This document shows, in pieces, positions 8,993 through 58,472 of a stretch of 64,000 bases of DNA. The notes under the pieces were generated by a model, which saw only the letters and a list, made by a program, of their open reading frames with translations, searched no databases and was not told the origin of the DNA. The DNA lies in assembly GCA_001803415.1 (NCBI GenBank), contig MHDC01000011.1, positions 4,642 through 68,641 on the forward strand, given 5' to 3'. This DNA is from Microgenomates group bacterium RBG_16_45_19 (GTDB lineage: Bacteria > Patescibacteriota > Microgenomatia > UBA1400 > RBG-16-45-19). The first letter of the stretch is position 1. Each line of letters starts with the position of its first letter. The position numbers and the translations under genes were made by a program.

Positions 8993-9028
8993 ATGAATAA
9001 TGAATAATGAATGATGCATGATGAGTAA
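8993..9028. repeat. heptamer tandem repeat block
   Basis: AATGAAT AATGAAT AATGAAT GATGCAT GATGAGT upstream of the EamA-like gene. Confidence 0.65.
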
Positions 9029-9950
9029 ATCACTAAACCAGGGAATAATGTTCGCGATCGGGGCGGCGGTGATTTCGGGAGTGGCTAATTATGCCAATGG
9101 TATGGTAGTGCGGGGGATAGACCCATTAGTGCATAACGTGGTCAAGAACGGCTTGGTGGGGGTGGCCATGCTGGTGATTTTATTAGTCACGGCTGAATGG
9201 CGAACACTGGGCAAGTTAAAGCCCAAACAATGGCGAAACTTGGGGCTGGTAGCCCTGATCGGGGGCAGTATTCCCTTTTGGTTGTTTTTTACCGGGGTCA
9301 AGCAAATCGGGGGGGTGGAGGGGTCAATGATCCATAAAAGTCTGATTTTTTGGGTAGCGTTGATGGCCATACCGCTGCTTAAAGAACGAGTGGGCTTAAA
9401 AATGTGGGCGGCGATTGGATTACTGTATCTATCGAATATGGCCGCTGGGTTTACCGGTTTTAAGACTTTAGGGATAGCTCATTTGATGGTGCTTAGCGCC
9501 ACCATGTTCTGGGCGGTGGAAAACATTTTAGTCAAAAAGACTTTGACGGGAGTGCCCGTGAACGTGGTGGTGACAGCCAGGATGCTGGGTGGAGCGGTGA
9601 TACTGGCCGGAATCTTGGTGGCGTCGGGCAAGGCACCATTAGTGAGCCAGTTAACTACCAGCCAGTGGTGGATGCTGATGGGGGTAGCGTTGTTACTTTT
9701 TGGTTATGTTTCAACTTGGTATCGGGCGTTGCAGTTAGCACCGGTAACGGTGGTAGCTGGCATTTTGGTGGGAGCAACGGTGGTGACCACGATGCTGGAA
9801 GCGGTTTTGAGGACCAAGACTGTGAGCCTGGGGGCGGTGGTCCAGGGGACGATGATGATTACCGGGATCTATTTGGTGGTGACGGCCGTCAAGGATTGGA
9901 AAGCTTTGGGGGATAGGGCAACCACGTTTTGGAAGCCGAAGATTTCATGA
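9018..9950 (+). CDS. EamA/DMT-superfamily transporter-like membrane protein
   Basis: About 10 predicted TM helices with duplicated EamA-like halves. Start may be the ATG at about 9048 (preceded by AGGGAATA). Confidence 0.55.
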   Translation: MMSKSLNQGIMFAIGAAVISGVANYANGMVVRGIDPLVHNVVKNGLVGVAMLVILLVTAEWRTLGKLKPKQWRNLGLVALIGGSIPFWLFFTGVKQIGGVEGSMIHKSLIFWVALMAIPLLKERVGLKMWAAIGLLYLSNMAAGFTGFKTLGIAHLMVLSATMFWAVENILVKKTLTGVPVNVVVTARMLGGAVILAGILVASGKAPLVSQLTTSQWWMLMGVALLLFGYVSTWYRALQLAPVTVVAGILVGATVVTTMLEAVLRTKTVSLGAVVQGTMMITGIYLVVTAVKDWKALGDRATTFWKPKIS

Positions 9951-10714
9951 GTTAAAGGGCGATAGTCGGTTAAGGCAAGCCAACCGTGAGGTAAGAGACG
10001 GAAAAAATGGTAGCCGGGTAAAGCGGCCAGGATGTCTTTAAAAAAGGTACGGGTGTAAGCGTGTAAATCGTTGAATTCCAATTGAACCAGAGCAATAGCT
10101 TGGCGCCGAAGCAAATGGGCGGCACCGGTTAAGACTGGTAACTCGTTACCTTCGGTGTCGATTTTGAGCCAGTCGATGGCTTTAACCGTTTGAGATTTGG
10201 CCCAAGAGTCTAGAGTCACGGTGCTAACCGGATAGCGTTTGACTGGCTGGTGGTAAAAATCGGTAATGATTTGGCGGTGAATAGAGGCTAAGGTGGCAGT
10301 GGGTTGAGTCGGTTTGAGGGGAGCCTGGTCGGCAAAATCATAGAGAAAAGTCCGGCTGACATGATCGCTGACCGCCTGCTGATAAAGGGCAATGGTGGAA
10401 ATAGATTTAAGATGATGTTGCAGCAATTTAAAAGTCTCAGGATTGGGTTCAAAACAGTGATAATGGGCTTTAGGGAAGAAAGTCATCAATTCACGGGTGT
10501 AGCCGCCTTCATTGGCACCAACATCACAGACGACCCTGACCTGAAAGTGCTTTTGGACGTGACGCATAAGCCAGCGTTCGCCGGTAGCCAGGCTGCCTTC
10601 AGCGTTTAAGACTCCTAAACCACGGAGACTGAGGTGATGGAGCCGAGTAAAGAGAGGGGCTAAAGCTGGGCGGCAGAAAAGACGTTGGTAAAGGGTAATC
10701 AGGGAGGCTTTCAT
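9869..10714 (-). CDS. FkbM-family methyltransferase
   Basis: VVCDVGANEGGYTRELMTFFPKAHYHCFEPNPETF, a SAM-binding FkbM motif. Confidence 0.65.
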   Translation of the reverse strand: MKASLITLYQRLFCRPALAPLFTRLHHLSLRGLGVLNAEGSLATGERWLMRHVQKHFQVRVVCDVGANEGGYTRELMTFFPKAHYHCFEPNPETFKLLQHHLKSISTIALYQQAVSDHVSRTFLYDFADQAPLKPTQPTATLASIHRQIITDFYHQPVKRYPVSTVTLDSWAKSQTVKAIDWLKIDTEGNELPVLTGAAHLLRRQAIALVQLEFNDLHAYTRTFFKDILAALPGYHFFRLLPHGWLALTDYRPLTHEIFGFQNVVALSPKAFQSLTAVTTK

Positions 10715-10743
10715 CAGGCTTAGTCTAACAGAAACAGTCGGTC

Positions 10744-11499
10744 ATGCTAAACTGCCTTATGGCCGAAAGCGGAGCGTTGAAGTGTGCCCGGTATGCGTTT
10801 GCGCCAAATTTGTATCATTATTGCGGGCCGGATACCGGGGGTGAGTTTGGGGAATATGTAGCGGCGGAAATGGCAGATGGGGGGTTAGTGGAACATTTGA
10901 CCAAATTTGAAACCTTGTTCCCCTATTTGCAAGTGATTGCCCAAGCCAATGGCCGAGTCGATCCCTTTGACAAACAGGTAGTGGAAGCATATTGGGTGGG
11001 CAACCGGTTGTTGGAGCAAGTGGATGAAAAAGCAACGTTTGCGGCTCTGACAACCTATCAGCATTTACCCCAGCGATTAGCCAAAAAAGAGTTAAAGTGG
11101 TTAATGCCAAAAATCGATAAACAAGCACGGCTGCATCACTCATTTCATGTCTTGAATGTATTTACCCGGACGGGACACCGGACGATTAGACACACGGTGG
11201 AGACGATGGATGAGTGTAGGATTTCCTGGGGGGAAATCCTAAGCTCAGATGTCAAAGCTCAAAACTCAAAACTAAAACTTAAAACTCAAAAACTTATCTA
11301 TTCTGGTGGTAAGCTCAAGCTAGTGCCAGGAGAGAAAGAGGTTTTAGTAGCCCAAGAATCACTGGTTAAGAGACTTAATCCGGGAGATTGGGTAAGTGTG
11401 CATTGGGGGATAGTGTGCGATAAACTAAGTCAACCAGTGGTGGAGCGATTAAAATTTTACACTGAGTATCACCTCAAATTGGCGAATGAGACAATTTAG
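10744..11499 (+). CDS. hypothetical protein
   Basis: 251 aa with no confident family. Contains an in-frame 7-bp tandem repeat (AAAACTC-like, about 6 copies) at 11254-11296. Confidence 0.4.
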   Translation: MLNCLMAESGALKCARYAFAPNLYHYCGPDTGGEFGEYVAAEMADGGLVEHLTKFETLFPYLQVIAQANGRVDPFDKQVVEAYWVGNRLLEQVDEKATFAALTTYQHLPQRLAKKELKWLMPKIDKQARLHHSFHVLNVFTRTGHRTIRHTVETMDECRISWGEILSSDVKAQNSKLKLKTQKLIYSGGKLKLVPGEKEVLVAQESLVKRLNPGDWVSVHWGIVCDKLSQPVVERLKFYTEYHLKLANETI

Positions 11500-12168: not shown

Positions 12169-12201
12169 GTGTTACATAAAATTAGTAATGAACAGGAAAT
12201 A

Positions 12202-12600: not shown

Positions 12601-12659
12601 CAGGAAGAAAGTTTTTTGGCATATTGACATATTGTCATACGATTGTATGATGTGAGTAT

Positions 12660-12893: not shown

Positions 12894-12897
12894 GGGT

Positions 12898-13323: not shown

Positions 13324-14044
13324 CGGTGAGGGATTTGTAAACCGTGCTGGTGCCGGGTTCGACCGGGGCACCGCCACCACCGCCCATGTCCCGACCGGCG
13401 GCATACATGAGCACCGGGCTTTGGGCACCAGTTTCGGTCACGTTTAAGACCTCACCCACCTTCTTGTCGGAAGCTTGGGCAATCGCCTCGGCCTTTTCTC
13501 GAGCATTTTTAATGGCTTGGTCAACCAAGTCGAGCTCAGTTTGGGCGGTATCATCAACGGTAAAGTTGGGGCCGTAGACGTTGGTGGCGCCGGAAGCGGA
13601 GAGAAGATCGGTTAACTCAGAAGTTTTCTCGATTTGTCTAAGTTTGATGGAAACGTCATTGCTCACCCGCCACTGGCCGGGTTGAGTACGCTCACGGCCA
13701 CCGACGGTGACTGGTTCTTCCTGCTGATAGATAGAGAGGTTTTGAGTTTTGATGTCGGCTTCGGGGATACCAAAGTCTTTGACCGATTGGATAAGACTCT
13801 CCACTTTTTGATTGACATCGTCAACGGCTTTTTGCTTGTCGTCGTTAACGGCGGTGACGCCAGCGGTAAAGGTGGCAATTTGAGATTGTTGTTCGGTCTT
13901 AGCTTCACCGATAACGGTGACGGTGTCAGCCGGAACCAGGGCGAATTTCCCCCAAGTAATTTGATCCCAAGGGATAAAGAAAGCCCCGGCAAAGATGACT
14001 AAAGCAAAGACTATTAAAGCCCCAGTTAAACGATCAGATTTCAT
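13304..14044 (-). CDS. SIMPL-domain (DUF541) periplasmic protein
   Basis: N-terminal TM anchor then SIMPL-like repeats. Start at the ATG at 14044, preceded by AAGGAGG. Confidence 0.6.
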   Translation of the reverse strand: MKSDRLTGALIVFALVIFAGAFFIPWDQITWGKFALVPADTVTVIGEAKTEQQSQIATFTAGVTAVNDDKQKAVDDVNQKVESLIQSVKDFGIPEADIKTQNLSIYQQEEPVTVGGRERTQPGQWRVSNDVSIKLRQIEKTSELTDLLSASGATNVYGPNFTVDDTAQTELDLVDQAIKNAREKAEAIAQASDKKVGEVLNVTETGAQSPVLMYAAGRDMGGGGGAPVEPGTSTVYKSLTVTFELK

Positions 14045-14126
14045 AGCTAACCTCCTTGTCTTCTTAATATACACTATTGAACCGGAGCTGGTAAATTAGT
14101 ACCACTAATAGTACTATGAGGGGTAT

Positions 14127-14414: not shown

Positions 14415-14663
14415 ATGGATTTAGACTTGTCGCCGAGAGCGTTAAAGCAACTGGCTAAAATCGGCAAGAAAGATCAAGACCGGTTCGAGAGAAAATTTAG
14501 CCAACTGGGTAATAATCCCTATGCCGGAAAACCACTACGAGGCAAGTTTGCCGGACAGATGAGTCTTAAGGCATGGCCATTAAGAATTATTTATCGAATT
14601 AACACGAAAAAAGTGATCGAGATTTTAGATGTGGATTACCGGGGTGGGGTGTATAAGGACTAA
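14415..14663 (+). CDS. RelE/ParE-family toxin
   Basis: 82 aa, ...AWPLRIIYRINTKKVIEILDVDYRGGVY. Directly follows the Phd/YefM gene. Confidence 0.65.
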   Translation: MDLDLSPRALKQLAKIGKKDQDRFERKFSQLGNNPYAGKPLRGKFAGQMSLKAWPLRIIYRINTKKVIEILDVDYRGGVYKD

Positions 14664-15964
14664 TGGCGGTGGAGTTTGAACTTGAGAAAGTGCGACGCAC
14701 AACTCATGCAGGGGTCGTAGGCGCGAATCAACTTCTCGCATTCGTGTGCCAGGGCGAGTTGATCCAGATCAAGGTGATTTTGAATCAGAGTCTTTAGGTC
14801 GTTTTCGATGTTGATTTGGTTTTGGCCGGTGGGAACGATGATTTCATAGCGGTCGATTTTACTGTCGACCACGTGAGCGGCGTGATAGAGGATACCACGG
14901 GGAGCTTCGATCAAACCGATACCGTCGCCGGTGGGGCGGGCGGACTTAACCGGGGCTTCCTGGACAAACTGAGTTTTTGCTAACAAAGTCAGGGTATAAT
15001 CAATGGCGTCAACTATTTCAATGGCTTGAGCCAAATTGTTGTGATAAACATTGACCGAAGGGAAGAATTTAAGCGCAGCGGCACAGTCCTTAAGAGTACG
15101 AGGTTGAAGTAAGTCTTGGTTAAGGTTGAGGCGGGCTAAGGAGCTAACCATAAAGTCGAAACCTTCGAATTGATAACCGGAAGCGTGAGAATGAGGAATG
15201 ACCACGTGCTGTAGATGCTCTCGGTATTGAGTGTCGGGCAAGAGACGATCGTCATGGGTCTTGAGGGTGCGAGACAATAGGTAATCGTAGTGATCGGCGC
15301 CGCGTAAAGCCAAAAAGCGATGATTACGCTCAAAAGTGAAGTTGACTTGAGCAAAGAGATCAACTAATTGAACCGCCAGCGGGCGGGCAGCTTGGAGTTC
15401 TTGAATGAGATTGGGGATAGACGAGGAATTAACCGGCCGGTTAAAGCCCCCGACCACAAGATCGGGAGCGTGAACGGAGCGACCACCGGCAAAAATGGAG
15501 AGGTGGTTGCCGGCGGCTTTCAGTTTAAACAGGTTTTCGAGCAAAGACCGCTGTTGGGGATTGGTTTCGTCAAAATCAAGAATGGAGTCCAGGTTATAGA
15601 CATCGGGGAGGACAAAGACAACCAGATGCAGGGCATGATCGCGAATATACATGCCGGCGTTGACTAGTTCCCGGCGGACTTGAGTGAGAGGAGTGACGGC
15701 GATGCCCAGGGCGGCTTCAACGGCTTTGAGGGAAGCCAGAATATGAGCATTACTGCAAGTACCGCAGATACGAGCGAGTAAGCTGGGGGCGGCAGCGGCC
15801 GGTTTAGCCTCGACGGCTTTAGTGTAGAAGCGTTTGAAATCGGTGATGGTAAAGCGACACTGAGTCACCGTTTTGCCTTGGACGGTCACGTCCAAAGAAG
15901 CATGACCCTCGATTTTGGTAATTTGGTTAAGGCTGAAAGAAAAGTTATCTTGATGCATAAACAA
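14660..15964 (-). CDS. [NiFe]-hydrogenase large subunit (group 3-like)
   Basis: N-terminal RICGTCSNAH (RxCGxCxxxH) and C-terminal DPCMSCASH (DPCxxCxxH) nickel-site motifs, followed by a short cleavable tail (FLKFKLHRH). The track start is a TTG; an ATG lies two codons in. Confidence 0.85.
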   Translation of the reverse strand: MFMHQDNFSFSLNQITKIEGHASLDVTVQGKTVTQCRFTITDFKRFYTKAVEAKPAAAAPSLLARICGTCSNAHILASLKAVEAALGIAVTPLTQVRRELVNAGMYIRDHALHLVVFVLPDVYNLDSILDFDETNPQQRSLLENLFKLKAAGNHLSIFAGGRSVHAPDLVVGGFNRPVNSSSIPNLIQELQAARPLAVQLVDLFAQVNFTFERNHRFLALRGADHYDYLLSRTLKTHDDRLLPDTQYREHLQHVVIPHSHASGYQFEGFDFMVSSLARLNLNQDLLQPRTLKDCAAALKFFPSVNVYHNNLAQAIEIVDAIDYTLTLLAKTQFVQEAPVKSARPTGDGIGLIEAPRGILYHAAHVVDSKIDRYEIIVPTGQNQINIENDLKTLIQNHLDLDQLALAHECEKLIRAYDPCMSCASHFLKFKLHRH

Positions 15965-15967
15965 TGA

Positions 15968-16489
15968 TCAATGGTTGATGGTTGATGATTTAGAAACGAT
16001 GGGAGCGTGGCCGAAGTCGACGAGTAACTGGTTAACGGTGGCTAAAAAGGTATCGAGATTCATGGGGCAGCCGGGGACCTGGGCGTCGACAGGAATGACT
16101 TGAGTGAGCGGTTTGATCTGATCGGGATAATTAAATTTGGTCAAGATGGGTTGAATGGCAGCGATTTGCTCGGGGGTGAAAGTGTTTCTTTGAGCCGAAG
16201 GCAGACCGGTACAGGCACAGGAGCCGATGGCCACGACTTTTTGGGCACGTTGACGTAACTTTAACATGGTGACGACGTCGTGATCGGAGTTGGCGGCACC
16301 CTCGATAAAAGCAATGTCCAGCGGTGATTGAGTGTCTCTTTTTGAGGAAAAGGTGGCGGCGTCAATAAAATTGAAATGTTTTTTGAATTCGAAAAAATAA
16401 TCGTTTAAGAGTTCAGCAAACATGATGGTTGAGTCCTCGCAGCAAGCAAAGGAATACCAAGCAATAGCCAGTTTAGGGAGGTTGGGCAT
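15968..16489 (-). CDS. [NiFe]-hydrogenase small subunit (group 3 delta-like)
   Basis: IAWYSFACCEDS, AIGSCACTG and PGCPM cysteine motifs for the proximal Fe-S cluster. Start at the ATG at 16489. Confidence 0.7.
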   Translation of the reverse strand: MPNLPKLAIAWYSFACCEDSTIMFAELLNDYFFEFKKHFNFIDAATFSSKRDTQSPLDIAFIEGAANSDHDVVTMLKLRQRAQKVVAIGSCACTGLPSAQRNTFTPEQIAAIQPILTKFNYPDQIKPLTQVIPVDAQVPGCPMNLDTFLATVNQLLVDFGHAPIVSKSSTINH

Positions 16490-16545
16490 GGATAAAGGAT
16501 ACCGGGTTGCCGGAGGAGTAGCAAGAGTGGGAGATGACTTAAGTG

Positions 16546-16583
16546 AATGAGTAATGAGTAAGAAACAATGAGTAATGTATAAT
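16546..16583. repeat. heptamer tandem repeat block (AATGAGT family)
   Basis: AATGAGT AATGAGT AAGAAAC AATGAGT AATGTAT between the hydrogenase small-subunit start and the YqeY start. Confidence 0.7.
16576..16583 (+). promoter_or_regulatory. extended -10 promoter element (TGTATAAT) for the YqeY-like gene
   Basis: TGnTATAAT at 16576-16583, 23 nt upstream of the ATG at 16606, with a GGAAAGGAG RBS in between. Confidence 0.35.
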
Positions 16584-16605
16584 CGCAATAATGGAAAGGA
16601 GAGTT

Positions 16606-19317: not shown

Positions 19318-19337
19318 GATGGTTAATGGTTAATGAT

Positions 19338-20003
19338 TTAAATTTTGTCAAAATTGAAACCTTTTTGGCAGGCCAAGGTTTGGATTTGGGGATTAGCGGC
19401 AAGGTTTTGGAGACGTTGGTCAAAGAGTGCTAGCGAGTAGTCAAAGTGGAATTTGGGGCGGAGGATTTGAAGCCACTTGAAGCCGGTATCAAGATAGGCA
19501 TCAAGCGTACTTTGAGACATTTGGCCTGATACAACGGCATTTTGAGAGGTGAGCCAGCGATCGAGATTAAGCACTTCGAGCTTGTCGGCGTCCCAAAGGA
19601 TTTGGCCTTCAAGATTAACCGGGGTATCTTCAAATTGGTGGTATCGAACAGCTTTGATTGAAGTAGTGATAAAGGCAGAGTCAAAGTGAAATTCTTGCAG
19701 ACGAGCTTCAAGAAAAGAGGCAGTATCGGCAACATTATGACCGGCGCTATGAAGTTCATCTCGAGGTTTAACCACGACGTCGTGCCAGAAACAGGCGAGC
19801 TTGAGAGCATTAAGATCAACGATAGCAGATCCCGAATCTGTCTGACGCTTAGATCCGGGATCTAAAACTATGTGCTTGGATATATCCTGGGCGGTGGCCC
19901 AAACGGCTTCAGCGTGGGCTAGGTCGTGGCCGGCATCAAAAGGATTATCGGTTAAGAATTGACGGGCTTGGGTGAGAAGGGAGTCCATTTGTGAGAGTGA
20001 CAT
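19338..20003 (-). CDS. HD-domain phosphohydrolase-like protein
   Basis: GHDLAHAE ... FWHDVV ... LWDADKLE, an H..HD..D pattern. Confidence 0.55.
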   Translation of the reverse strand: MSLSQMDSLLTQARQFLTDNPFDAGHDLAHAEAVWATAQDISKHIVLDPGSKRQTDSGSAIVDLNALKLACFWHDVVVKPRDELHSAGHNVADTASFLEARLQEFHFDSAFITTSIKAVRYHQFEDTPVNLEGQILWDADKLEVLNLDRWLTSQNAVVSGQMSQSTLDAYLDTGFKWLQILRPKFHFDYSLALFDQRLQNLAANPQIQTLACQKGFNFDKI

Positions 20004-25065: not shown

Positions 25066-25437
25066 TCAATGGGGCTGGATTTGACTTAAGGCCTTAACCG
25101 GAAGCATGAGACAGTTGAGGCGGAGGGGGGTGATGGTGGCGCCGATAAGCTGCTGCATGAATTCGGGGGTAAGATTAGCAAGGGCGGTGACTGGTTTACC
25201 TTTAAGGTGAGAGGTTAAGAGTGAACAAGCGGCGGTGGAGACGGCGCAACCGGTACCGGTAAACTTCAAATCCTTAATGGTTAATGATTGATGATTAATT
25301 AGCACGTAGAAGATAAAGCTGTCGCCGCAGGAGGCGTTGGTTTCCTTGATGACCCGGTCGGCGGATTTGAGACGGCCATAGTTGTCAGGGTGGCGATAGT
25401 GATCGAGAATTTCTTGGTGATAAAGGTCGTCGGACAT
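25066..25437 (-). CDS. sufU: SUF-system Fe-S assembly scaffold, NifU/SufU family
   Basis: LYHQEILDHYRHPDNYG, NASCGD and GTGCAVSTAA cysteine ligand motifs. Confidence 0.7.
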   Translation of the reverse strand: MSDDLYHQEILDHYRHPDNYGRLKSADRVIKETNASCGDSFIFYVLINHQSLTIKDLKFTGTGCAVSTAACSLLTSHLKGKPVTALANLTPEFMQQLIGATITPLRLNCLMLPVKALSQIQPH

Positions 25438-25459
25438 AGAAATGAGTAATGATTAGAAT

Positions 25460-26428
25460 TTATGCCCTAATAAGTTTTTCTAGCCAAGGTATAGGCTGAT
25501 TTTTTCTTTGCCACCAGAGGTCTTCCCAGAGATAATGAATTACCAACTGCTTGTATGGACCAAAGCGATTGAAATAGCTAAATAGTTTTCTAACTGTAAC
25601 TGGATGATTCGGATCTTGGTCAAAAATTAGCTTGGAGTAGATTTTTTGTTCCCAGGGAGAAATGTGATCGAGGTAATCCCAGTGATGAAAAACATCAAAG
25701 AGTAAATAACCAACCGTGGCGGGTCCGATGCCATAAAGATTTAGAAGTTTAGTCTTTTGAGTATCCAAGTCTTGTTGTCTGAGTTCATTCTCATTTACAA
25801 CACCTTTGGCAAATGAGTCATCTGTTTTCTTGATTGATTTAGCGCGGTATCCCAGTTTTAAGGATCTCAATTCAGCTTCGGGAACAGTTTTTAAGTCTCC
25901 CAGATCCCAAAAACACCAAAATTGCTTACCGGCAAATTCTAGGAGAGTACCATAGTGTTCAAATAAAATCTGCATCATTTGGATTGAGCGACGGACAGTG
26001 CAATTTTGTAAAACGATACCAATGATTAAATACTCATAGAGGGAATCTTGATGTCCAGGGCGTAAGCCCCTCATTTTCTTAATAACTGGTCCCACCTTTG
26101 TATCGCTGGCGAAATGTTGGTAGAAATGATTGAGGTCAAAATTTAGGTTATAGCGGTATTGAATCTCTTGGATAAATTCGGCAACTAAATCGTTGGCTAA
26201 TGGTCTGGATGAATAAATCTCCACCTCAATCTTTGGTATTTCGACGGAGCCGGTATTTCTAAAAATCACACCAAGATATTTACCAAGAAAGCGAAAAGTT
26301 TGCCATCTGATGCCGGACTCCCAGTAGTTATCCCCGGAGGTGAAATGGGCCGGTTTATGAAAGGTGGTATCAAAATGGAAAGGAGCTGATGGTTTAATCT
26401 CAACAATAGTAACCGATTCCAGGATCAT
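25460..26428 (-). CDS. HhH-GPD superfamily DNA glycosylase-like protein
   Basis: LYGIGPATVGYLL helix-hairpin-helix / Gly-Pro-Asp region. Low-GC gene. Confidence 0.5.
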   Translation of the reverse strand: MILESVTIVEIKPSAPFHFDTTFHKPAHFTSGDNYWESGIRWQTFRFLGKYLGVIFRNTGSVEIPKIEVEIYSSRPLANDLVAEFIQEIQYRYNLNFDLNHFYQHFASDTKVGPVIKKMRGLRPGHQDSLYEYLIIGIVLQNCTVRRSIQMMQILFEHYGTLLEFAGKQFWCFWDLGDLKTVPEAELRSLKLGYRAKSIKKTDDSFAKGVVNENELRQQDLDTQKTKLLNLYGIGPATVGYLLFDVFHHWDYLDHISPWEQKIYSKLIFDQDPNHPVTVRKLFSYFNRFGPYKQLVIHYLWEDLWWQRKNQPIPWLEKLIRA

Positions 26429-31582: not shown

Positions 31583-31620
31583 AATAATGAGCAATGAGCA
31601 AGAAACAATGAGTAATAAGC
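31583..31620. repeat. heptamer tandem repeat block (AATGAGC family)
   Basis: AATGAGC AATGAGC AAGAAAC AATGAGT AATAAGC in the sufC-sufB spacer. Confidence 0.7.
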
Positions 31621-39872: not shown

Positions 39873-40565
39873 TTATTCAGCGGCTTTTTTGGCTTCAGGT
39901 TTAGATTCAGGAGTTTCAGTTTTGGCTTCAGCTTCCGGTTTAGATTCAGGAGTTTCAGCTTCAGCTTTGGGCTCCACTGGAGCCTCTTCAACTTTTTCTT
40001 CTTCCTGAGGTTTAATGGTGACTAACATTTCCTCGGGTGTCAAAGCTAGAGTCACCAGTTTCCGATCAAACTTCAGATCCTTGACGAATAAAGAAGCTCC
40101 AATCTCAGCTAAAGAGGAAATGTCGAGAACAAATTTGTCCGGCAAGTAGGCGGGTAAGGCTTCAACTTCAAGTTCGTTATGGATTATAACCAAAACCCCA
40201 TTAAGATCTTTGACGGCCGGACTGTCACCAGTGGTTTCAAAGGCAATGTTGGCGGTAACTTTTTCGGTGAGAGACACCTCGCGAAAATCAACATGCAAGG
40301 GAAGACTAGTAACCGGATGGGTTTGAACGTTAGTGATTAAAACCGGATGAGTTTTTTGGCTACCGGTTACCGCCAAATTAATCAAACCGGTGGCACCGCT
40401 TTGGGAGTAGACCAAAGAAAAGTCAGCGTGTTTGACTTGGACGGCAAAGGATTTAGTTTTGGTTCCGTAAACATTAGCGGGAATAAAACCCTGTCGACGT
40501 AAATCTCTGACCTCACGGCCGATAATTGTACGGGGTGCAGCGTTTAATCTAATTTGGGTTGCCAT
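39873..40565 (-). CDS. rplY: 50S ribosomal protein L25 / general stress protein Ctc
   Basis: Start at the ATG at 40565 (MATQIRLNAAPRTIIGREVRDLRRQGFIPANVYG). The C-terminal acidic tail has a tandem TPESKPEA repeat. Confidence 0.85.
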   Translation of the reverse strand: MATQIRLNAAPRTIIGREVRDLRRQGFIPANVYGTKTKSFAVQVKHADFSLVYSQSGATGLINLAVTGSQKTHPVLITNVQTHPVTSLPLHVDFREVSLTEKVTANIAFETTGDSPAVKDLNGVLVIIHNELEVEALPAYLPDKFVLDISSLAEIGASLFVKDLKFDRKLVTLALTPEEMLVTIKPQEEEKVEEAPVEPKAEAETPESKPEAEAKTETPESKPEAKKAAE

Positions 40566-44237: not shown

Positions 44238-44254
44238 ACCTAAAATAGGATCGA

Positions 44255-44283
44255 GTATTTAGTATTTAGGATTTAGGATTCAG
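44255..44283. repeat. heptamer tandem repeat block
   Basis: AGTATTT AGTATTT AGGATTT AGGATTC immediately upstream of yidC, followed by a 7-bp-stem inverted repeat (TCAGGGT-caaaaca-ACCCTGA). Confidence 0.65.
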
Positions 44284-44361
44284 GGTCAAAACAACCCTGA
44301 TTGAATCAGGCCAGACTGCAGTATAACATGGAGGACTCAAGGGGTTAATCGGGTAATCGCG

Positions 44362-45303
44362 TTAAGGTAAGGGGTCGGGCCAACCCAACTCGCTTCTGAT
44401 AACTGCCAAGGCGTGAGGATATTGGTCTGGGGTAAGTTGGTTATTTAAGACACAAGACTGTTTATTTTTTAGGCCAACACAGCCAAAACAGTCAGTACAA
44501 TTAGATAGACCGGAACTGTAATAGCAGTTGGTACATAAGCTACAGTACTCTAAAAAGGCAGAGTGATAATTACTACTGCCACCACAGATTTCGTAACATA
44601 ACTCCTGCCAGGTACCGCTGAGCATAGCTTGCAAATTTGATCCCGAAGCCGATCCACCACCAAATGAGGTGTCCCAGGAATCACGAGCCATGCCACTATC
44701 GTAGATATAACCGGAATTCTCAACATAATAAGAGTTAAAACCCCAATACATATCTTTACAGTTAGTAATATAGTCACCATACGGACAGTTTTCCGTTTGA
44801 CGCTGCATGCTCTGGGGGACCGGGGTAGACTGCTTGAGCAAAGTAAATTGAGACAAGATTTGATCAAGCGATTGTTGCTTGACGAGCTCAAGTTGTTGAT
44901 GATAGTCAGCCTGACTGAGTTGCCGATTAAAGAGACAGTATTTTTTATTAGACAGGGCGACACAGCCAAAACACGAGTCACAATTAAAACATTGATAACA
45001 ATAATGGCAATCACGACATTTGGTGCAATCTTGAGAATAGGTTAGGCGATAGCAATCGAGACATTCGATGGACTCATAACAAAGTTCAGACATGCCGCAG
45101 TAAAGGCAATCAACAAGGTGCTTTCCGTTACAAAGAAAGCAATAGCTACAAGCTTGGCTACTGAGACATAAAATACAATAATGACAATTTTGGCTATAAT
45201 GGGTGTAATCACAATATTCACATGCTTCAGGATTAGTGAGGCGTAGGGCTGGAACGGGGATTGATTGACGCAGTTGATGGTAACTGTCTAAAAATTTGGC
45301 CAT
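44362..45303 (-). CDS. extremely cysteine-rich protein with an internal duplication (unknown family)
   Basis: 313 aa with about 50 Cys in repeated CxxC(xx)C units. Two homologous halves each end C(F/T)(N/D)C(D/T)xCFGCVxLxNKxxCxxNxQL. Start codon abuts the upstream zinc-ribbon gene stop. Confidence 0.5.
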   Translation of the reverse strand: MAKFLDSYHQLRQSIPVPALRLTNPEACEYCDYTHYSQNCHYCILCLSSQACSYCFLCNGKHLVDCLYCGMSELCYESIECLDCYRLTYSQDCTKCRDCHYCYQCFNCDSCFGCVALSNKKYCLFNRQLSQADYHQQLELVKQQSLDQILSQFTLLKQSTPVPQSMQRQTENCPYGDYITNCKDMYWGFNSYYVENSGYIYDSGMARDSWDTSFGGGSASGSNLQAMLSGTWQELCYEICGGSSNYHSAFLEYCSLCTNCYYSSGLSNCTDCFGCVGLKNKQSCVLNNQLTPDQYPHALAVIRSELGWPDPLP

Positions 45304-45585
45304 TTAGACAACTTTGGTTAGATCAACCTGACTACGGAACTCTTCATAACATTTGAGACAATAGACAATCATGCCTTTGTCGGGATTAACTGTAGTCACC
45401 ATGCTCTGACCACATTTAGCGCATAGATATTTATAGAATTGGCGCTCATTTCTCAAACTAAGACGACGCTGATGACGACAGTCAGGACAATTAGTCGGCA
45501 GAGGTAAACCCATTCTCTTATAGAAAGCTAATTCCTGAGTAATGAGCTTAAACGCTTTAGAACAAGTTTGACATTTTTGCGGCAT
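45304..45585 (-). CDS. zinc-ribbon protein (two CxxC pairs x2)
   Basis: CQTC...CPDC and CAKC...CLKC. Confidence 0.5.
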   Translation of the reverse strand: MPQKCQTCSKAFKLITQELAFYKRMGLPLPTNCPDCRHQRRLSLRNERQFYKYLCAKCGQSMVTTVNPDKGMIVYCLKCYEEFRSQVDLTKVV

Positions 45586-45600
45586 ACTTAATGAGTATGA

Positions 45601-47901
45601 TTATACTATGGGTTCTTCAAAAGTGGGTTTTGAGGGTGGTTTAGGCAATCGCTGGCTGGAAATCAAATCAACCACCGGACCGGCTTGTTGAAGATATTGG
45701 GCAATTTCGGCCGGTGATTTGCCATAGCGTTGACGTGATAAGGTTTTGATCTGGGCGGCCAAATTTTTAGCGCTTGGTTTAACGGTTAAGGTGGTCGCTG
45801 AGAATGGTTCAGTGGTTTTACCGACGACAGAAAGCTTGGCGTAAACTTCACGGATATTAAGGTTGATTAAATCCGCCTGATTGACGCCGGGAGTGAATTC
45901 TTTGGCTAAAAAGGCCGCATCTTCGGGGCCGGTCCGAAAGGTGATAAAGGAGCCGACGTTACCGAAAACAGTTTTGCGAATGGCGGGAGTAAGCTGGTCG
46001 AGGTATTGATGAGCGATGGTAATGGCGAGATTAAATTTACGGGCTTCGGATAAGAGCTGGTTAAAGGAGTCGGTAGCAAAATGCTGAAATTCATCGACAT
46101 ATAAATAAAATTCCGGTCTTTGGTCTTCCGGTTGGTTAACCCGGGCCATAGTGGCTTCTTGAATCTTGGTAAGAATCATGGAGCCTAATAGAGCGGTGTT
46201 TTCTTCACCGAGTTTCCCTTTAGCAATGTTGATAACAATAATTTTGGCTTCATTCATGGCAGTGGAAAAGTCAAACGCCGACTGAGGTTGACTGACAACA
46301 TGACGGATATAATCGTTGGAGATAAATTGACCTACTTGATTAATCAGGGGAATAATGGCTTCGTTGTCGAATTTCTCGTTCCAGGCAGTAAATTCGTGGG
46401 TCCAAAAATTTTTAACCACCGGGTCTTCGAGTTGAGCAATGAGTTGATGACGATAGTCAGTTTCGGTTAATAAACGGACAATATCGATGACGGTGGTGTT
46501 TCCGACTTCAACTAGAGCCAGAACGATAAAGCGGAGGACGTGTTCGAGACGACTATTCCATTGAGCCCCAAACAATTTTTTAAAAATAGCAATAAAACCG
46601 GTCACCACTTGATATTTAGCCTCAGGGGTTTCGCAGGTGAGCGGATTAAATCCCAAGGGGTGGGTAGTATCGGAGGGATTGAAATAGATAACATCATTAA
46701 CGCGTTTTGGGGGAATATGGGAGAGAATATTTTCGGCCAAGTCACCATGAGGATCGATAACACAAAAGCCCTTATCAAAAAAGATATCGGAAAGGATGAG
46801 AAGTTCGATAAGTTTACTCTTACCCATGCCGGTTTTACCGACGATATAGGCGTGGCGGTTACGATCCCGGCGGTCCAAGCCGAATTCGAGGCTGGTTTCC
46901 CGATATAAAGTTTTACCAAAAATAGAGTGGTGGGGTTGGTCTAAAAATTGACCTTTTGGCAGATTCTGAGGCGGCGGGAGATAATTGGCGGCGACGTGTT
47001 CCAGGTTAGTAATATGTAATGAGGAATCGGGAAAATGGAAAATGGCGGCCAGTTCACGGGAATTTAAGATAAAGGGATTAGGAGAGAGGCTGCGGGCCAT
47101 AAAGCGCTGTTTGATGGCTTCAGGTTGGGATGGAGACACCACTAGGGCATTAATGTCACTCAGACTGAGTTTATCCAGGGCTTTACTGACTAAGCCAAGA
47201 TTTTCGTTGACTTCGGTAGTTGAGGGAGCAGATATGGCGACGCGAAGGTTGGCATAAAATAGTTTTGAGTCAAACTTCTGTTTGACAACTTGATAATAGT
47301 TAATCGCTTCTTTTTCAAGAAAGGGATGATGAAGAAAGCGATTCAGGTTATTTAAGGCGCCAATAATAAATGAGAATTTTTCTCGGAGAAATTGGCGCGA
47401 CCAGGATTCAGAAGTAGGTTTAAGGAGTATTTGCAGACATACCCCCTCTTCATAATGTTCGAGTTTGTTAAGGACAGCAGCCAGCATCAGATAGGGGTCT
47501 GACTGAGAGGTAAAACTAGTTTTGAGGGGGAAAAATGACGATCTTTCTAAGGTGAATTCGGTAAAGACTTGTTTTTGACCATGGACTTTAATCTCCACCG
47601 CCGCTTGAGTAATTTCGACGCGATTAAATTTAGTGTAAATTAAAGGAGTAATGACCGCGGCCAATGGCTGGGGGGCAACAATTTGAAAGCTAAAATAGTT
47701 TTCCTGTAACCAGACTTCGCAACTGATAGTGTCGGTCGGCTGATGCGGATTAAGTCGAGTCTTAGCCAACTTATGTAAATCTTCAAAAAAAGCGGTGAAG
47801 ATGGCGACGGAATTTTCAAGATCGAGGGGTGCTTTAAGGCGGAGCACCTGTTTCGGTTGGATCATGACGGTTTGGCCACCCCAGGTGGCATACGTAGCCA
47901 T
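45601..47901 (-). CDS. TraD/VirD4-like (T4CP / DUF87 HerA-FtsK-like) ATPase, no N-terminal TM
   Basis: Walker A GKTGMGKS, IDPHGDL, Walker B FYLYVDEFQHF and RKFNLAITIAHQYLDQL. Confidence 0.65.
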   Translation of the reverse strand: MATYATWGGQTVMIQPKQVLRLKAPLDLENSVAIFTAFFEDLHKLAKTRLNPHQPTDTISCEVWLQENYFSFQIVAPQPLAAVITPLIYTKFNRVEITQAAVEIKVHGQKQVFTEFTLERSSFFPLKTSFTSQSDPYLMLAAVLNKLEHYEEGVCLQILLKPTSESWSRQFLREKFSFIIGALNNLNRFLHHPFLEKEAINYYQVVKQKFDSKLFYANLRVAISAPSTTEVNENLGLVSKALDKLSLSDINALVVSPSQPEAIKQRFMARSLSPNPFILNSRELAAIFHFPDSSLHITNLEHVAANYLPPPQNLPKGQFLDQPHHSIFGKTLYRETSLEFGLDRRDRNRHAYIVGKTGMGKSKLIELLILSDIFFDKGFCVIDPHGDLAENILSHIPPKRVNDVIYFNPSDTTHPLGFNPLTCETPEAKYQVVTGFIAIFKKLFGAQWNSRLEHVLRFIVLALVEVGNTTVIDIVRLLTETDYRHQLIAQLEDPVVKNFWTHEFTAWNEKFDNEAIIPLINQVGQFISNDYIRHVVSQPQSAFDFSTAMNEAKIIVINIAKGKLGEENTALLGSMILTKIQEATMARVNQPEDQRPEFYLYVDEFQHFATDSFNQLLSEARKFNLAITIAHQYLDQLTPAIRKTVFGNVGSFITFRTGPEDAAFLAKEFTPGVNQADLINLNIREVYAKLSVVGKTTEPFSATTLTVKPSAKNLAAQIKTLSRQRYGKSPAEIAQYLQQAGPVVDLISSQRLPKPPSKPTFEEPIV

Positions 47902-48470: not shown

Positions 48471-48605
48471 TTAAGCCGCCAGGCGCCGACGACTCTTAAG
48501 GCGACGGTGGTGTAAGACGGACCGACCGGGTTTGGTCTTTTGGCGAGCTCTAAAGCCATGAGTTTTTTGGTAATGGCGTTTTTTGGGTTGATAAGTACGC
48601 TTCAT
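48471..48605 (-). CDS. rpmH: 50S ribosomal protein L34
   Basis: Absent from the ORF track (44 aa). Translated by hand: [44 protein letters not shown]. Confidence 0.9.
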
Positions 48606-48610: not shown

Positions 48611-48650
48611 TAATGAGCAAGGAACAAGGAACAATGAGTAATAAGTAGTA
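48611..48650. repeat. heptamer tandem repeat block
   Basis: AATGAGC AAGGAAC AAGGAAC AATGAGT AATAAGT in the rpmH-dnaA divergent spacer. Confidence 0.7.
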
Positions 48651-48713
48651 TATAGGGAGAAGCAGAGGAGAACAAGAAGGCTATATGGTTCGGGTTTTTT
48701 GGGGATTGAATAA

Positions 48714-48722
48714 TGTGGATAA
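48714..48722. promoter_or_regulatory. perfect DnaA box (TGTGGATAA = TTATCCACA) upstream of dnaA
   Basis: Exact 9-mer in the rpmH-dnaA divergent spacer. Confidence 0.5.
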
Positions 48723-48798
48723 CTTTATTAGGCTGTGTTTCACTTGCCTTTGGTTCATCCCTGGTATTGTGGTTATAACTGCCTTAAAGGATAGGGTT

Positions 48799-51533: not shown

Positions 51534-52257
51534 AAGGTGGGGGGGTCGGGGGGGGGGGGGGGGGGGCTTTGAGCGAGGCCACGGCTTGAGTCAGGGGGGA
51601 GGCATAATCGTTGGCCGAGGAGAGGCTGGCGGATTCACCGGCGTCAGGATTGTAGGCGACATAGAAGAGATGAATCAGTTCCTGGGTGGTGAGTTGGCGG
51701 GCGGAAAGATTCAGGTGAGTCAGTTGACGCAGGAGGTGGTCGCGCTTGGGCTCGAGAGAGCTTAAAGCTTTTTGGATGATATAGGTTTTATCATAGGGCA
51801 GTTTTTTGGGTTTGGAACTGGTGGGTAAGGGTAAGGCAGACTTGGAGGTTAAGCCGAGTTCGATGGCTGAGAAAGGAATGACAATATAGAATTTTTTGTC
51901 GAGGACGTTGCGTTCCTTGACGATGATCTCGACGAATTGGCGGTATTGTTCGATGCGAGCCCGAAGAACAGGGCTTAACTGGCGGACCTCCTGAGCCTTG
52001 AGTAGTTTCAAGTAATTGGTAATGTCTTTGCGCTGAGAGCGGATGAGGATTTGAATGGGGAAGGAGAGAGAATTTAAGAGGCCGGCGTAGACGTAGATCA
52101 AGCCGTCTTGTTCTTCTTCGGAGAGAAGATTAAAGTTGATGGCGCTAACTTTGAGGACCATGCAGGCCGAACCGTCGCGGAGAAGAACCAGATTAGAAAC
52201 AACATCTTCAATATCCAGATTTTCTTGAGTGGTGGAGCGAATGGGGGTGACGGGCAT
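51505..52257 (-). CDS. hypothetical protein with a polyproline C-terminus; weak resemblance to a VirB4/TraC N-terminal domain
   Basis: The N-terminal region (IEDVVSNLVLLRDGSACMVLKVSAINFNLLSEEEQDGL) resembles the first domain of VirB4/TrbE proteins. The C-terminus (APPPPPPTPPPFSPPP) is encoded by the C19 run and overlaps the dnaN 3' end by 29 nt. Confidence 0.35.
   Translation of the reverse strand: MPVTPIRSTTQENLDIEDVVSNLVLLRDGSACMVLKVSAINFNLLSEEEQDGLIYVYAGLLNSLSFPIQILIRSQRKDITNYLKLLKAQEVRQLSPVLRARIEQYRQFVEIIVKERNVLDKKFYIVIPFSAIELGLTSKSALPLPTSSKPKKLPYDKTYIIQKALSSLEPKRDHLLRQLTHLNLSARQLTTQELIHLFYVAYNPDAGESASLSSANDYASPLTQAVASLKAPPPPPPTPPPFSPPPAPAA
51539..51566. repeat. G7-TC-G19 homopolymer tract
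   Basis: Read directly: 7 G, then TC, then 19 consecutive G, immediately after the dnaN stop and inside the 3' end of the minus-strand ORF (poly-Pro codons). Confidence 0.9.
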
Positions 52258-53381: not shown

Positions 53382-53387
53382 AGGGGG

Positions 53388-54314: not shown

Positions 54315-54317
54315 AAG

Positions 54318-57041: not shown

Positions 57042-57246
57042 AAGTCAATCATACCAGAGGTTGATGGCATGAGGGGCTCAAGTTTTGGTATGATGAAAAG
57101 AGGTTGTGAGTTGGGGACAGAGAAGATATAATATAGTTATAGGTTATTATGACTAGAATGGTCAAGGAACAAGTTGAATGGGATGATATGGTGCGAGACG
57201 CGACAATCCAACGGTTTGAATATACCTTGTTCAAAACTTAACGCAT

Positions 57247-57711
57247 ATGAATGACGCCATAAGCCATAAGCCATTAGCTATAAGCCAAAAGTCTGATCCT
57301 TTCTTAGCGGATGAGTTGGATGAGAGGAGGATTGGAGTGATGGTAAAGTTTTGGGTCGAGGGGGCAGAGGAGGCGTGGGAGATTGCACAAGCATTGGATA
57401 AAAACAAAAAGTACAGTTATGCCTTGTTTTTCTGTCATTTGGCTTTGGAAAAGCAGATTAAAGCGGTGGTGGTGCGAGTGGTCAGAAAACCGCCGATTCC
57501 GTCCCACGATCTGGTGCGACTGCTCAAGATGTTGGGAATTGAATTGAACGATAGCCAAAAGGCAGAACTTAAAGAAGTTAATTCATTTAACCTTGAGGCA
57601 AGGTATGATGATTATAAGAGGCAGTTTTACTTAAAAGCAACGAAAGAGTACACAGAGAAATGGATGAAGAAGTGCGAGGAGTATTTAATATGGCTAAAAG
57701 AAAAGATATAG
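57247..57711 (+). CDS. HEPN-domain protein (HepT-like toxin)
   Basis: ALFFCHLALEKQIKA... is a HEPN helix pattern. The true start may be the ATG at 57340, which has a perfect AGGAGG RBS 9 nt upstream. In that case the upstream 93 nt, including CCATAAG-like heptamer repeats, is leader. Confidence 0.55.
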   Translation: MNDAISHKPLAISQKSDPFLADELDERRIGVMVKFWVEGAEEAWEIAQALDKNKKYSYALFFCHLALEKQIKAVVVRVVRKPPIPSHDLVRLLKMLGIELNDSQKAELKEVNSFNLEARYDDYKRQFYLKATKEYTEKWMKKCEEYLIWLKEKI

Positions 57712-58016
57712 ACCAGGAACTGCTGGTAATGATGAAGCGCTATAAAAAAGTATTGGTGACGGCGAACATTAGGCCGGAGTTTATGGCGGTGTTTGGGTCG
57801 CAAGTTAAGGGGACCGCCAAACCATATTCAGATATTGATGTTTGTATTGTGTCGAAGGATTTGTCAGCCGACCCGGTGGATGATTACGTTAGATTGTCGA
57901 TGTTGGCCGATAAGGTTGATGACCGGATCGAGCCTCACGGATTTCTACCGGAGGATTTTGACCCAACAATGGATTCACTGGCTTATGAGGTAAAGCGAAC
58001 TGGGGTAGTGATATAG
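57690..58016 (+). CDS. minimal nucleotidyltransferase (MntA-like antitoxin)
   Basis: VFGSQVKGTAKPYSDIDVCIV (GS-x9-13-DxD). Overlaps the HEPN gene by 22 nt. Confidence 0.6.
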   Translation: MAKRKDIDQELLVMMKRYKKVLVTANIRPEFMAVFGSQVKGTAKPYSDIDVCIVSKDLSADPVDDYVRLSMLADKVDDRIEPHGFLPEDFDPTMDSLAYEVKRTGVVI

Positions 58017-58028
58017 AGCCAAATATTT

Positions 58029-58472
58029 ATGAATGACCAGAAAAACCATCAACCATCAAATACTAACCAACCTCAACCCCATGACCCCTTTTTAGCCGAT
58101 GAGCTGGATGTGCTGGAGGCAGTGGCGAAGTTGGAGCAGAAGTACGGGAAAAAGATTTTAACCGAGGAGCAGAGGGGAAAACTTTTACAAGCCAGGAGGG
58201 GTGAAGGTGGGCAAACTGCTGAAGTCAGTGTAACAAAGATTAATCAATTAAAATCAATAGGTGGTATTGGACAGAAAGAAGCAGAGTGGTTGGTGGCAGC
58301 TTTAAGGGCTAAATTGAAGAATGACATTAGTAATAATTTAGGGAAATATAGCTGGGATAGTTTTAGTGAGAAACAAAAGCAATATGTGATTTCGTGTTAT
58401 TTCCAATTAGTTTACGGGACATCGGAGTACCATTTGGCGGAATTGTTGGCTGGAGGAGGCAAGAATGCCTGA
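58029..58472 (+). CDS. small protein with a helix-hairpin-helix motif
   Basis: INQLKSIGGIGQKEAEWLVAAL is HhH-like. The N-terminus shares MND...DPFLADELD with the HEPN ORF. Confidence 0.4.
   Translation: MNDQKNHQPSNTNQPQPHDPFLADELDVLEAVAKLEQKYGKKILTEEQRGKLLQARRGEGGQTAEVSVTKINQLKSIGGIGQKEAEWLVAALRAKLKNDISNNLGKYSWDSFSEKQKQYVISCYFQLVYGTSEYHLAELLAGGGKNA

Follow-up and report, generated by a model that had tools for sequence, protein, structure and literature searches.

Tandem repeats of seven-nucleotide units are known from several groups of bacteria. The closest described case to the one reported here is that of the TAACTGA direct repeats, which occur in marine Beggiatoaceae and in some Cyanobacteria and Bacteroidetes (MacGregor 2015, PMC4679880). 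They are found at many dispersed loci in sets of two to six copies, often split by a related 7-mer; most sets point to a start codon that follows after one or a few nucleotides, rarely together with a ribosome-binding site (PMC4679880). Some sets are found in front of essential genes, such as those for ribosomal proteins, and a minority lie within open reading frames (ORFs). Their function is unproven, and a role in translation initiation as well as binding of S1, Csp or CsrA have been proposed (PMC4679880). Here we describe a dispersed family of heptanucleotide arrays in a stretch of 64,000 nucleotides (nt) of Microgenomates group bacterium RBG_16_45_19, a groundwater bacterium of the candidate phyla radiation (CPR) from the Rifle aquifer study. 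The whole stretch (assembly GCA_001803415.1, contig MHDC01000011.1, positions 4,642 to 68,641) is referred to as the window, and all positions are given relative to it. In arrangement only, the window arrays are like the TAACTGA sets, as they share the orientation to the start codon, the end at 0–5 nt from it and the lack of a Shine-Dalgarno sequence. TAACTGA itself is present in the window in four single copies without any tandem pair. In contrast to the one exact heptamer of the TAACTGA sets, the window family is degenerate (AATGRKT plus AAGRAAC), and it is found in the tiny genome of a CPR bacterium. A switch of the unit between sister species at the same leaders was observed here and has not been reported for TAACTGA.

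Many bacteria show an over-representation of heptameric simple-sequence repeats, which may result from polymerase slippage, and in Xanthomonas, related species differ in the length and sequence of such repeats at corresponding intergenic positions (PMC4692102). The GGGAATC and GGGGAYT heptamers of Xanthomonas and Nostoc (Rehm 2015, PMC4692102) and the cyanobacterial STRR heptanucleotides, as far as they are covered by PMC4692102 in citing Mazel 1990 and Mrazek 2007, are likewise tandem, dispersed, mainly intergenic and specific to period 7. However, these heptamers are G-rich, capable of forming G-quadruplexes and often present in many copies, whereas the window arrays are without G runs, hold 2–6 copies and lie close to start codons. 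In the promoters of hmw1 and hmw2 of Haemophilus influenzae, (ATCTTTC)n occurs in 11–24 perfect copies, the number of which varies between clonal isolates (PMC8262952, PMC12721329). There, too, a 7-nt unit is positioned between promoter and start codon, partly within the 5' untranslated region. The hmw repeats tune an adhesin, whereas the window arrays have no more than 3.1 perfect copies, are unchanged in five assemblies and are linked to housekeeping genes. Finally, in the part of PMC9879509 that deals with them, the tandem repeats of Borgs, archaeal extrachromosomal elements, are described as creating disordered protein regions and as virtually absent from host genomes. According to that account, the fast-evolving Borg repeats likewise occupy intergenic positions as well as ORFs, and in the latter they contribute hydrophilic segments of low complexity; compared with this description, which is without unit lengths, the window arrays are strictly of period 7 and reside on a bacterial chromosome.

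The STRR units CCCCAGT, TTGGTCA and CAACAGT form long arrays. None of the three was found in tandem in the window. As the units of the known families never occur there in tandem, the window arrays fall outside any named sequence family. They share with heptanucleotide simple-sequence families, taken in the broad, STRR-like sense, tandem 7-nt units above chance level, units shared between dispersed loci and a predominantly intergenic location, and they are a new case of the same kind as the STRR and TAACTGA repeats. In the literature searched, no description of heptamer arrays in CPR bacteria was found. With respect to function, we consider the chances about even that the arrays represent a lineage-specific dispersed heptanucleotide simple-sequence family which is kept as unstructured, Shine-Dalgarno-independent leaders; we do not take them to be contingency loci.

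Period-7 arrays and their shared units

The initial annotation of the window had listed 13 loci with heptamer repeats, and all 13 were recovered at or within a few bases of where it had placed them. Tandem Repeats Finder returned 16 rows of period 7, compared to 1.4 in 30 dinucleotide-preserving shuffles, and 11 compared to 0.1 if arrays of at least three copies were counted. An independent scan for identity at lag 7 yielded 14 arrays, while 0.45 were expected. The number of arrays accordingly ranges from 14 to 16 depending on the scan, and a count of 15 was adopted. In the lag scan, periods 4–6, 8 and 10–12 remained at shuffle level and period 9 was slightly raised (5 versus 0.55), as expected for coding sequence; no non-coding period other than 7 was enriched in the window. 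No residual lag-7 identity was detected outside the called arrays, in non-coding or in coding DNA, and the arrays are therefore discrete objects. Two of them had not been listed before, one in valS (38850–38875) and one in an ORF for a DUF87/TrwB-like protein (47030–47045). The existence of a dispersed family of period-7 arrays is thus confirmed. As to the three to six imperfect copies that had been ascribed to each locus, the arrays are there, but most of them hold just two or three perfect copies and are lengthened by degenerate ones. The longest perfect run comprises 3.1 copies, and 2.3–2.4 are typical.

The units of different arrays are related to each other. On the top strand the family reads AATGRKT, corresponding to A[A/C][C/T]CAT[T/C] in mRNA sense, with GTTYCTT interspersed. 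Eight arrays carry AATGRKT on the top strand (as AATGAGT/C, AATGATT, RATGGTT or AATGAAT), and the unit of the array at 58044 is the same family reversed. Among the consensus units of the 15 arrays, 21–22 pairs lie within one mismatch of each other, compared to 1.4–2.4 pairs for random 7-mers from the window, a relatedness that was reached by none of 500 random sets. Unrelated units (TCAAAAC, ACAAGCC, GTATTTA and GGAAAAT) are also present.

Among the dispersed repeats of the whole window, the highest rank is taken by a 36-nt composite. Its three copies, at 16544, 31584 and 48610, share 81–92% identity and constitute the leaders of hydS, sufB and rpmH, respectively. The sufB and rpmH copies are 92% identical, and in mRNA sense both leaders read CTTATT ACTCATT GTTYCTT (GTTCCTT) GCTCATT A(TA)TTT ATG. 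Such a likeness is not producible by local slippage on random sequence and points to copying between the loci or to a shared constraint. The 17-base core of the composite, AAGRAACAATGAGTAAT, has three exact occurrences in the window. It was absent from the fetched relatives, and the sole match among the fetched loci was in L085, an assembly of the same strain. The composite pattern AATGAGYN{0,7}AAGRAACAATGAGTAAT gave four matches in JGI metagenome contigs, all of them in unrelated contigs and at chance level, and the source genome evidently lies outside that collection.

The window is 92.4% coding and 7.6% non-coding and has a G+C content of 44–50%; 47 of its 74 genes are on the minus strand. 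Eight of the 15 arrays lie in the non-coding DNA and seven inside ORFs, which bears out the concentration in short spacers just upstream of start codons that had been noted initially. Five arrays fill the whole stop-to-start junction between co-directional genes (hypC-EamA, hydS-hydL, orf221-SGNH, HhH-GPD-sufU and sufC-sufB), and the arrays of hydL, SGNH, sufU, sufB and rpmH end 0–5 nt from the ATG. The three arrays in larger spacers are located 5 nt (rpmH), 7 nt (YqeY) and 16 nt (yidC) from the ATG. No array occurs in a convergent spacer; as these spacers total only 276 nt, this is uninformative. Scans of the window with Rfam and for tRNA genes gave neither an Rfam family nor a tRNA gene, and the arrays are thus not part of a known RNA family. 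An element of the REP or MITE-like type was rejected on the grounds that the arrays show neither inverted repeats nor a stable hairpin, that the sense reading is G-poor, and that array-bearing start regions are predicted to fold more weakly than those of other genes.

The arrays in other strains and in related genomes

The arrays had been proposed to be candidate sites of phase variation. As contingency loci, they would undergo frequent copy-number slippage, altering promoter-to-start spacing or the reading frame and resulting in on/off switching. The period of 7 is not divisible by 3, the arrays lie in leaders or in the 5' ends of ORFs, and hmw of H. influenzae phase-varies by heptamer repeats (PMC8262952). 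In addition, the units are homogenised within each species, indicating that slippage has happened over evolutionary time. By exact-protein look-ups, six contigs that are 99.5–100% identical to the window were obtained from five other samples, namely ERZ28563958, ERZ4902961, ERZ27254738, ERZ505139 and SRR4030067. They provided 11 array observations, four for the array at 19318, two each for 44254 and 47030, and one each for 38850, 39517 and 48611. There was not a single change in length or sequence in any of these, although the contigs carry 1–15 differences each, every one of them outside the arrays. The contigs are consensus assemblies of a very similar population, in which rare within-population length variants would be missed, which is a caveat to this comparison. 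Exact-protein look-ups of SufU, HydS and HydL for further copies of the arrays at 15962, 16546 and 25441 retrieved no entry, probably owing to differences in the called start codons.

Perfect runs of at most 3.1 copies are also far shorter than the 11–24 copies of hmw. The array-linked genes are housekeeping genes (sufB, sufU, rpmH, yidC, those of the NiFe hydrogenase, and valS) in addition to that of an SGNH hydrolase, rather than surface or restriction-modification genes, and the arrays within ORFs are in frame, fixed and encode ordinary loops. Hence, none of the hallmarks of contingency loci was found, i.e., a long uninterrupted tract, a difference in copy number between strains, or an association with niche-adaptive genes. 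Invariant counts combined with a lack of enrichment upstream of genes had been named as the outcome that would speak against the proposal; the counts are indeed invariant, while the positional enrichment is real. With interrupted and impure arrays that are invariant between assemblies and belong to housekeeping genes, phase variation by copy-number slippage is largely refuted at the consensus level and is, in our view, highly improbable. The heptamer arrays should not be annotated as phase-variation switches.

Relatives of the host are distant in the species collection, where the closest DnaA is 61% identical and the next ones, from Patescibacteria, share about 43% identity. Synteny is conserved across the family. 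A sister genome, L095 from SRR21359568, with a SufB of 82% identity, is array-rich like the window and has eight period-7 rows in 20 kb. It shares four array sites with the window, but its arrays there consist of other units. In the sufB leader, L095 has GCTATTG GCTAATT ACTAATG GCTAAAC and the window RCTCATT; in the window, position 4 of the unit is mostly C with an occasional T, and all L095 units have A there. In the sufU leader, TCACTAG / CCACGAA stands against ATCATTA CTCATT, in the sufU hairpin CAAAAAA against AATCATC AATCATT AACCATT, and in the valS linker ATCAAAT (sense) against AAGAAAC. A conserved leader motif, the second possibility raised initially, is therefore supported in part: the shared 36-nt composite (81–92%) and the recurrence at the sister leaders argue for it, but the unit sequences differ.

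In L095 and two further relatives, L096 and L097, the sufC-sufB spacers are 43–53 nt long, and identity at lag 7 amounts to 0.50–0.61 compared to about 0.3 at other lags (p from <0.0005 to 0.015). In the more distant genome L088/L098, which is array-poor to array-free, the sufC-sufB spacer is 7 nt, sufS and sufU overlap, and hydS and hydL are separated by 0 nt. Thus, relatives without arrays have stop-to-start junctions of 0–7 nt, and the window has 20–40 nt of array at the same junctions. Upstream of rpmH, a relative at 62% DnaA identity carries TAGGGTA x4.4 followed by AAGGAA, while no array was found before rpmH in a 78% relative and two others. From these sequence comparisons, it seems that junctions which were once minimal were expanded by arrays in one sub-lineage, and that the arrays were homogenised later within each species.

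Heptamer-rich loci were also present in an Amesbacteria contig, in another Patescibacteria contig and in an Oscillatoriales cyanobacterium; of 80 control loci, most had no more than a single array. The heptamer ATTTAGT / TAGTATT / GTATTTA is arrayed in three CPR genomes, at 1–34 of L087, at 4575–4605 of L007 and at 44254–44284 of the window. The L087 contig ends within its array, which suggests that assemblies break at such heptamer repeats.

Start regions and possible roles of the arrays

Shine-Dalgarno sequences are rare in the window. A four-base match was present in 16 of 72 genes and a five-base match in seven of 72, but a four-base match in none of the eight array leaders, in agreement with the initial observation that the repeats sit where a Shine-Dalgarno sequence would be. 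The predicted folding energy of the region from -40 to +20 was -3.7 kcal/mol for array-bearing starts (ranging from -1.7 to -6.4 kcal/mol) compared to -8.2 kcal/mol for the others (Mann-Whitney p=0.0015). In eight genes, where 0.56 were expected, a TAnAAT hexamer ends 6–9 nt before the ATG (starts at 16591, 20046 and 35755 on the plus strand and at 8768, 20003, 21477, 28995 and 48456 on the minus strand). These are mostly operon heads, which points to leaderless transcription of many operon-first genes. The arrays themselves were considered as sigma-70 promoters of leaderless genes and rejected, as those hexamers that are suitably spaced from the ATG do not match TAnnnT. The window displays three classes of gene start: few with a canonical Shine-Dalgarno sequence, many operon-first genes with a -10 box 6–9 nt before the ATG, and operon-internal genes with heptamer-array junctions.

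In the leader reading, the arrays would arise by slipped-strand duplication of 7-nt units and would occasionally be copied between loci, as may have occurred for the sufB and rpmH leaders with their 92% identity over 36 nt. Such arrays could persist by providing the mRNA with an A/U/C-rich, G-poor and barely folding stretch ahead of the ATG. This open stretch would permit Shine-Dalgarno-independent initiation, or re-initiation within operons. Speculatively, a protein that binds single-stranded RNA and covers about 7 nt of it, such as one with a cold-shock domain or S1, may take part. A cold-shock domain binds about 7 nucleotides. The heptanucleotide preferred by Bs-CspB is GTCTTTG/T (PMC1904285), to which GTTYCTT and GCTCATT bear a resemblance, though a resemblance only; a binder of the Csp or S1 type would be an appealing, if speculative, reason for the period of 7. 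No csp gene was found in the window. Based on position, composition and predicted folding, a role of the arrays as a leader motif is plausible, or they are at least tolerated as leaders.

Several points weigh against this reading. Seven arrays lie inside ORFs and are not explained by a leader function. A lower G+C content (28% versus 41%) accounts for part of the difference in folding. Shine-Dalgarno sequences are few genome-wise, and the array-free junctions of L098 are without them too, so that arrays are not needed for the translation of these genes. When read in the direction of the nearest gene downstream or of the gene that encloses them, 12 of the 15 arrays have more C than G, and several contain no G at all; however, all eight intergenic arrays have more G than C on the top strand, like the whole window. 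Since the window is G-biased on its top strand and most genes are on the minus strand, gene strand and chromosome strand are confounded. There are only three plus-strand cases, of which the arrays in the HEPN ORF and in ORF 58029 follow the gene and the EamA array follows the chromosome strand. The EamA array, and with respect to YqeY also the hydS/YqeY array, are read in the opposite sense. The periodicity in the sister species was rejected as proof of selection: at third codon positions, the window and the sister species share an identity of only 0.44, and at this level neutral decay of a once-perfect array would leave about the lag-7 identity seen in L096 and L097.

The latter residual periodicity matches the expectation of the main rival explanation, pure neutrality, in which a slippage bias for 7-nt units generates arrays everywhere, of which those survive that are harmless, in gene junctions, 5' untranslated regions and protein loops, without any role in expression. 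We rate this account only a little below maintenance as leaders, as a serious possibility that is nevertheless somewhat less probable. It fits with arrays that are degenerate, that comprise several unrelated units and that occur in spacers as well as in ORFs, where they occupy variable loops, linkers and N-termini and, in one case in valS, align opposite a gap. Close relatives without arrays work with junctions of 0–7 nt, heptamer over-representation is general in bacteria (PMC4692102), and in a genome that is 92% coding, "non-coding" is nearly the same as "just before a start codon". Independent slippage does not, however, predict one unit family at 9–11 loci or a 92%-identical composite of 36 nt in two unlinked leaders. 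The arrays in larger spacers still lie within 5, 7 and 16 nt of the start codon, and arrays persist at four orthologous sites of the sister despite the deletion bias that one would expect of a streamlined genome.

A more specific version of the leader role is a genome-specific "leader code", in which a protein with a 7-nt footprint (of the cold-shock-domain, S1 or KH type) reads the units and replaces the Shine-Dalgarno sequence for operon-internal genes. The bound protein would keep the start region open and recruit ribosomes or pass them on. Unit and binder would co-evolve, as could be reflected by RCTCATT in the window and GCTAATK in the sister at the same sufB leader, and new leaders would arise by copying of the 36-nt cassette from gene to gene, as for sufB and rpmH. 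We regard such a code as unlikely.

The arrays might alternatively act at the DNA level, with the heptamers binding a transcription factor, e.g., an iron or Fe-S regulator of suf and hydrogenase genes, or forming promoter spacers. The 36-nt composite precedes hydS, sufB and rpmH, its hydS/YqeY copy overlaps a TATAAT ending 7 nt before the YqeY ATG, and in relatives a gene for an Rrf2-family regulator precedes sufC. Most arrays, however, are operon-internal (hydS-hydL, sufC-sufB, HhH-sufU, orf221-SGNH), where an operator makes little sense. Scans for promoter consensus sequences remained at shuffle level and gave nothing consistent at the arrays, with only the hydS/YqeY copy ending in TATAAT, and the units differ between species even though regulator and target genes are conserved. 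An operator or promoter function is therefore very unlikely.

The least probable explanation, to which we give hardly any credence, is pairing of the CAUU core with a non-canonical 3' tail of the 16S rRNA as a substitute Shine-Dalgarno interaction. The last CAT of the array is positioned at -7 to -10 in sufB, rpmH, hydL and sufU, which is the usual Shine-Dalgarno distance, and canonical Shine-Dalgarno sequences are rare in the window. Yet the few genes with a good AGGAG/GGAGG argue for a normal anti-Shine-Dalgarno sequence, and the sister species has other units at the same leaders; neither the window nor any fetched locus contains an rRNA gene.

The individual arrays, their surroundings and significance

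The array upstream of the EamA-like gene (8993–9023, plus strand) comprises about 4.4 units of ATGAATA and fills the 28 nt from the hypC stop (8989) to the EamA ATG (9018). Alone among the leader arrays, it has the G-containing form AATGAAT as its reading in mRNA sense. Directly upstream, a 64-amino-acid ORF starting with MCL (8795–8989) encodes a putative hydrogenase maturation chaperone HypC, assigned by motif only, and the genes for the large and small hydrogenase subunits follow beyond it at 14660–16489. The hydL array (15962–15990, minus strand) reads AATCATC AACCATC AACCATT GATCATT G in sense direction and ends 3 nt before the hydL ATG (15958). It had been assigned to the spacer between the hydrogenase subunit genes; the block is present, but it takes in the final codons of hydS with the stop codon and does not lie in the spacer alone. 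The hydS/YqeY array (16546–16583, minus strand) is a copy of the 36-nt composite (sense ATACATT ACTCATT GTTTCTT ACTCATT ACTCATT) 57 nt upstream of the hydS ATG (16489). On the opposite strand it runs into the TATAAT ending 7 nt before the YqeY ATG (16591).

The array of the SGNH hydrolase gene (19318–19340, minus strand; sense ATCATTA ACCATTA ACCATC) fills the 20-nt junction after orf221 and abuts the ATG (19317). In the sister L095, this site reads ...TTTAAATC-ATG and is without AACCATT units. The sufU leader array (25441–25460, minus strand; sense AATTCTA ATCATTA CTCATT) fills the 22-nt junction behind the HhH-GPD gene and ends 3 nt before the ATG (25437). The sufB leader array (31583–31620, minus strand; sense GCTTATT ACTCATT GTTTCTT GCTCATT GCTCATT ATTT-ATG) is the reference copy of the 36-nt composite and fills the 39-nt sufC-sufB junction. 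The yidC array (44254–44284, minus strand; sense CCTGAAT CCTAAAT CCTAAAT ACTAAAT ACT) is located in a 124-nt spacer, 16 nt upstream of the yidC ATG (44237) and downstream of a promoter-like site and a hairpin. The rpmH array (48611–48650, minus strand) is the third copy of the 36-nt composite (sense ACTTATT ACTCATT GTTCCTT GTTCCTT GCTCATT ATATTT-ATG, with rpmH at 48605).

All seven arrays inside ORFs are found in variable or terminal segments of the proteins, i.e., loops, linkers and N-termini, and encode hydrophilic low-complexity peptides. In the DUF6390 gene, about 5.9 in-frame units of TCAAAAC/AAAACTC (11252–11291, plus strand) encode VKAQNSKLKLKTQK (residues 170–183). The sufU loop array (25274–25296, minus strand; sense AATCATC AATCATT AACCATT AA) encodes residues 48–55, a hairpin that varies between species and in L095 contains CAAAAAA x2.9. 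The first valS array (38850–38875, plus strand) is of the ACAAGCC type and encodes the nine residues TSHKTQATS, which align opposite a gap in the L088 and L095 orthologues; this alignment suggests a lineage-specific insertion. The second valS array (39517–39547, plus strand), with 4.1 units of GGAAACA/AAGAAAC, is the purest of all arrays and lies in a variable linker; its unit AAGAAAC is the 7-mer interspersed in the leader composite. A short array of GGAAAAT x2.3 (47030–47045, minus strand) covers residues 286–291 of the DUF87/TrwB-like ORF.

The array of the HEPN ORF (57256–57285, plus strand; GCCATAA) occupies codons 4–13, between the conserved MND and DPFLADELD, and that of ORF 58029 (58044–58059, plus strand; AACCATC) occupies codons 6–11 and aligns in phase with it. 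The latter ORF, of 147 amino acids, had been labelled as HhH; it has no Pfam match and is unannotated. Its first 27 codons (58029–58110) are like those of the HEPN ORF (57247–57330), while nothing is common to the two downstream. This duplicated 5' module belongs to genes that flank a nucleotidyltransferase gene in a toxin-antitoxin-like cluster. Two longer tandem duplications, at 39887–39958 (period 39, two copies, 84% matching) and at 13804–13852 (period 24, two copies), lie inside minus-strand ORFs and are unrelated to the heptamer family.

Further observations concern the surroundings of dnaA. Every 4-kb bin of the window (1–64000) has a positive top-strand GC skew (+0.03 to +0.34), without a change of sign at rpmH-dnaA-dnaN, and the C-rich strand carries 47 of the 74 genes. 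In relatives, the skew has the same sign on either side of dnaA. The replication origin may not adjoin dnaA, or the skew has another cause. Upstream of dnaA, a non-coding element at 48690–48725, GGGTTTTTTGGGGATTGAATAATGTGGATAAC, contains the DnaA-box-like TGTGGATAA. The element is kept in relatives down to 61% DnaA identity (L001 at about 9885–9920, L087, L088 and L089). A mechanical ORF call from 48685 crosses it; the deposited DnaA start is 48799. Where dnaN (stop at 51533) and a TraC-like gene converge, a G run at 51537–51567 consists of GGTGGGGGGGTCG followed by 20 G, and contig L085 from another sample stops just short of it, at 51476. The run could be an assembly problem, or it could be a real homopolymer, in which case slippage would be more likely there than at the heptamers. 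Between yidD and yidC (44362–47901), the window contains a 313-amino-acid ORF, a 93-amino-acid zinc-finger-like ORF and the 766-amino-acid DUF87/TrwB-like ATPase, whereas rnpA, yidD and yidC are contiguous in the relatives L088–L090, without these three genes. Together with nearby TraG/VirB4-like, TraC-like and PrgI-like genes, these genes look like type-IV-secretion or competence-like modules around the dnaA region.

CPR bacteria have very small genomes, and translation start is little understood in them. If the arrays aid initiation, the TAACTGA phenomenon, itself unexplained, would have a second and independent case, and a lineage with many metagenomes and with sister species that differ in their units would provide a natural comparative handle on it. 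If they are neutral, a streamlined genome still gains and keeps period-7 slippage products, and the arrays would be useful as strain or species markers.

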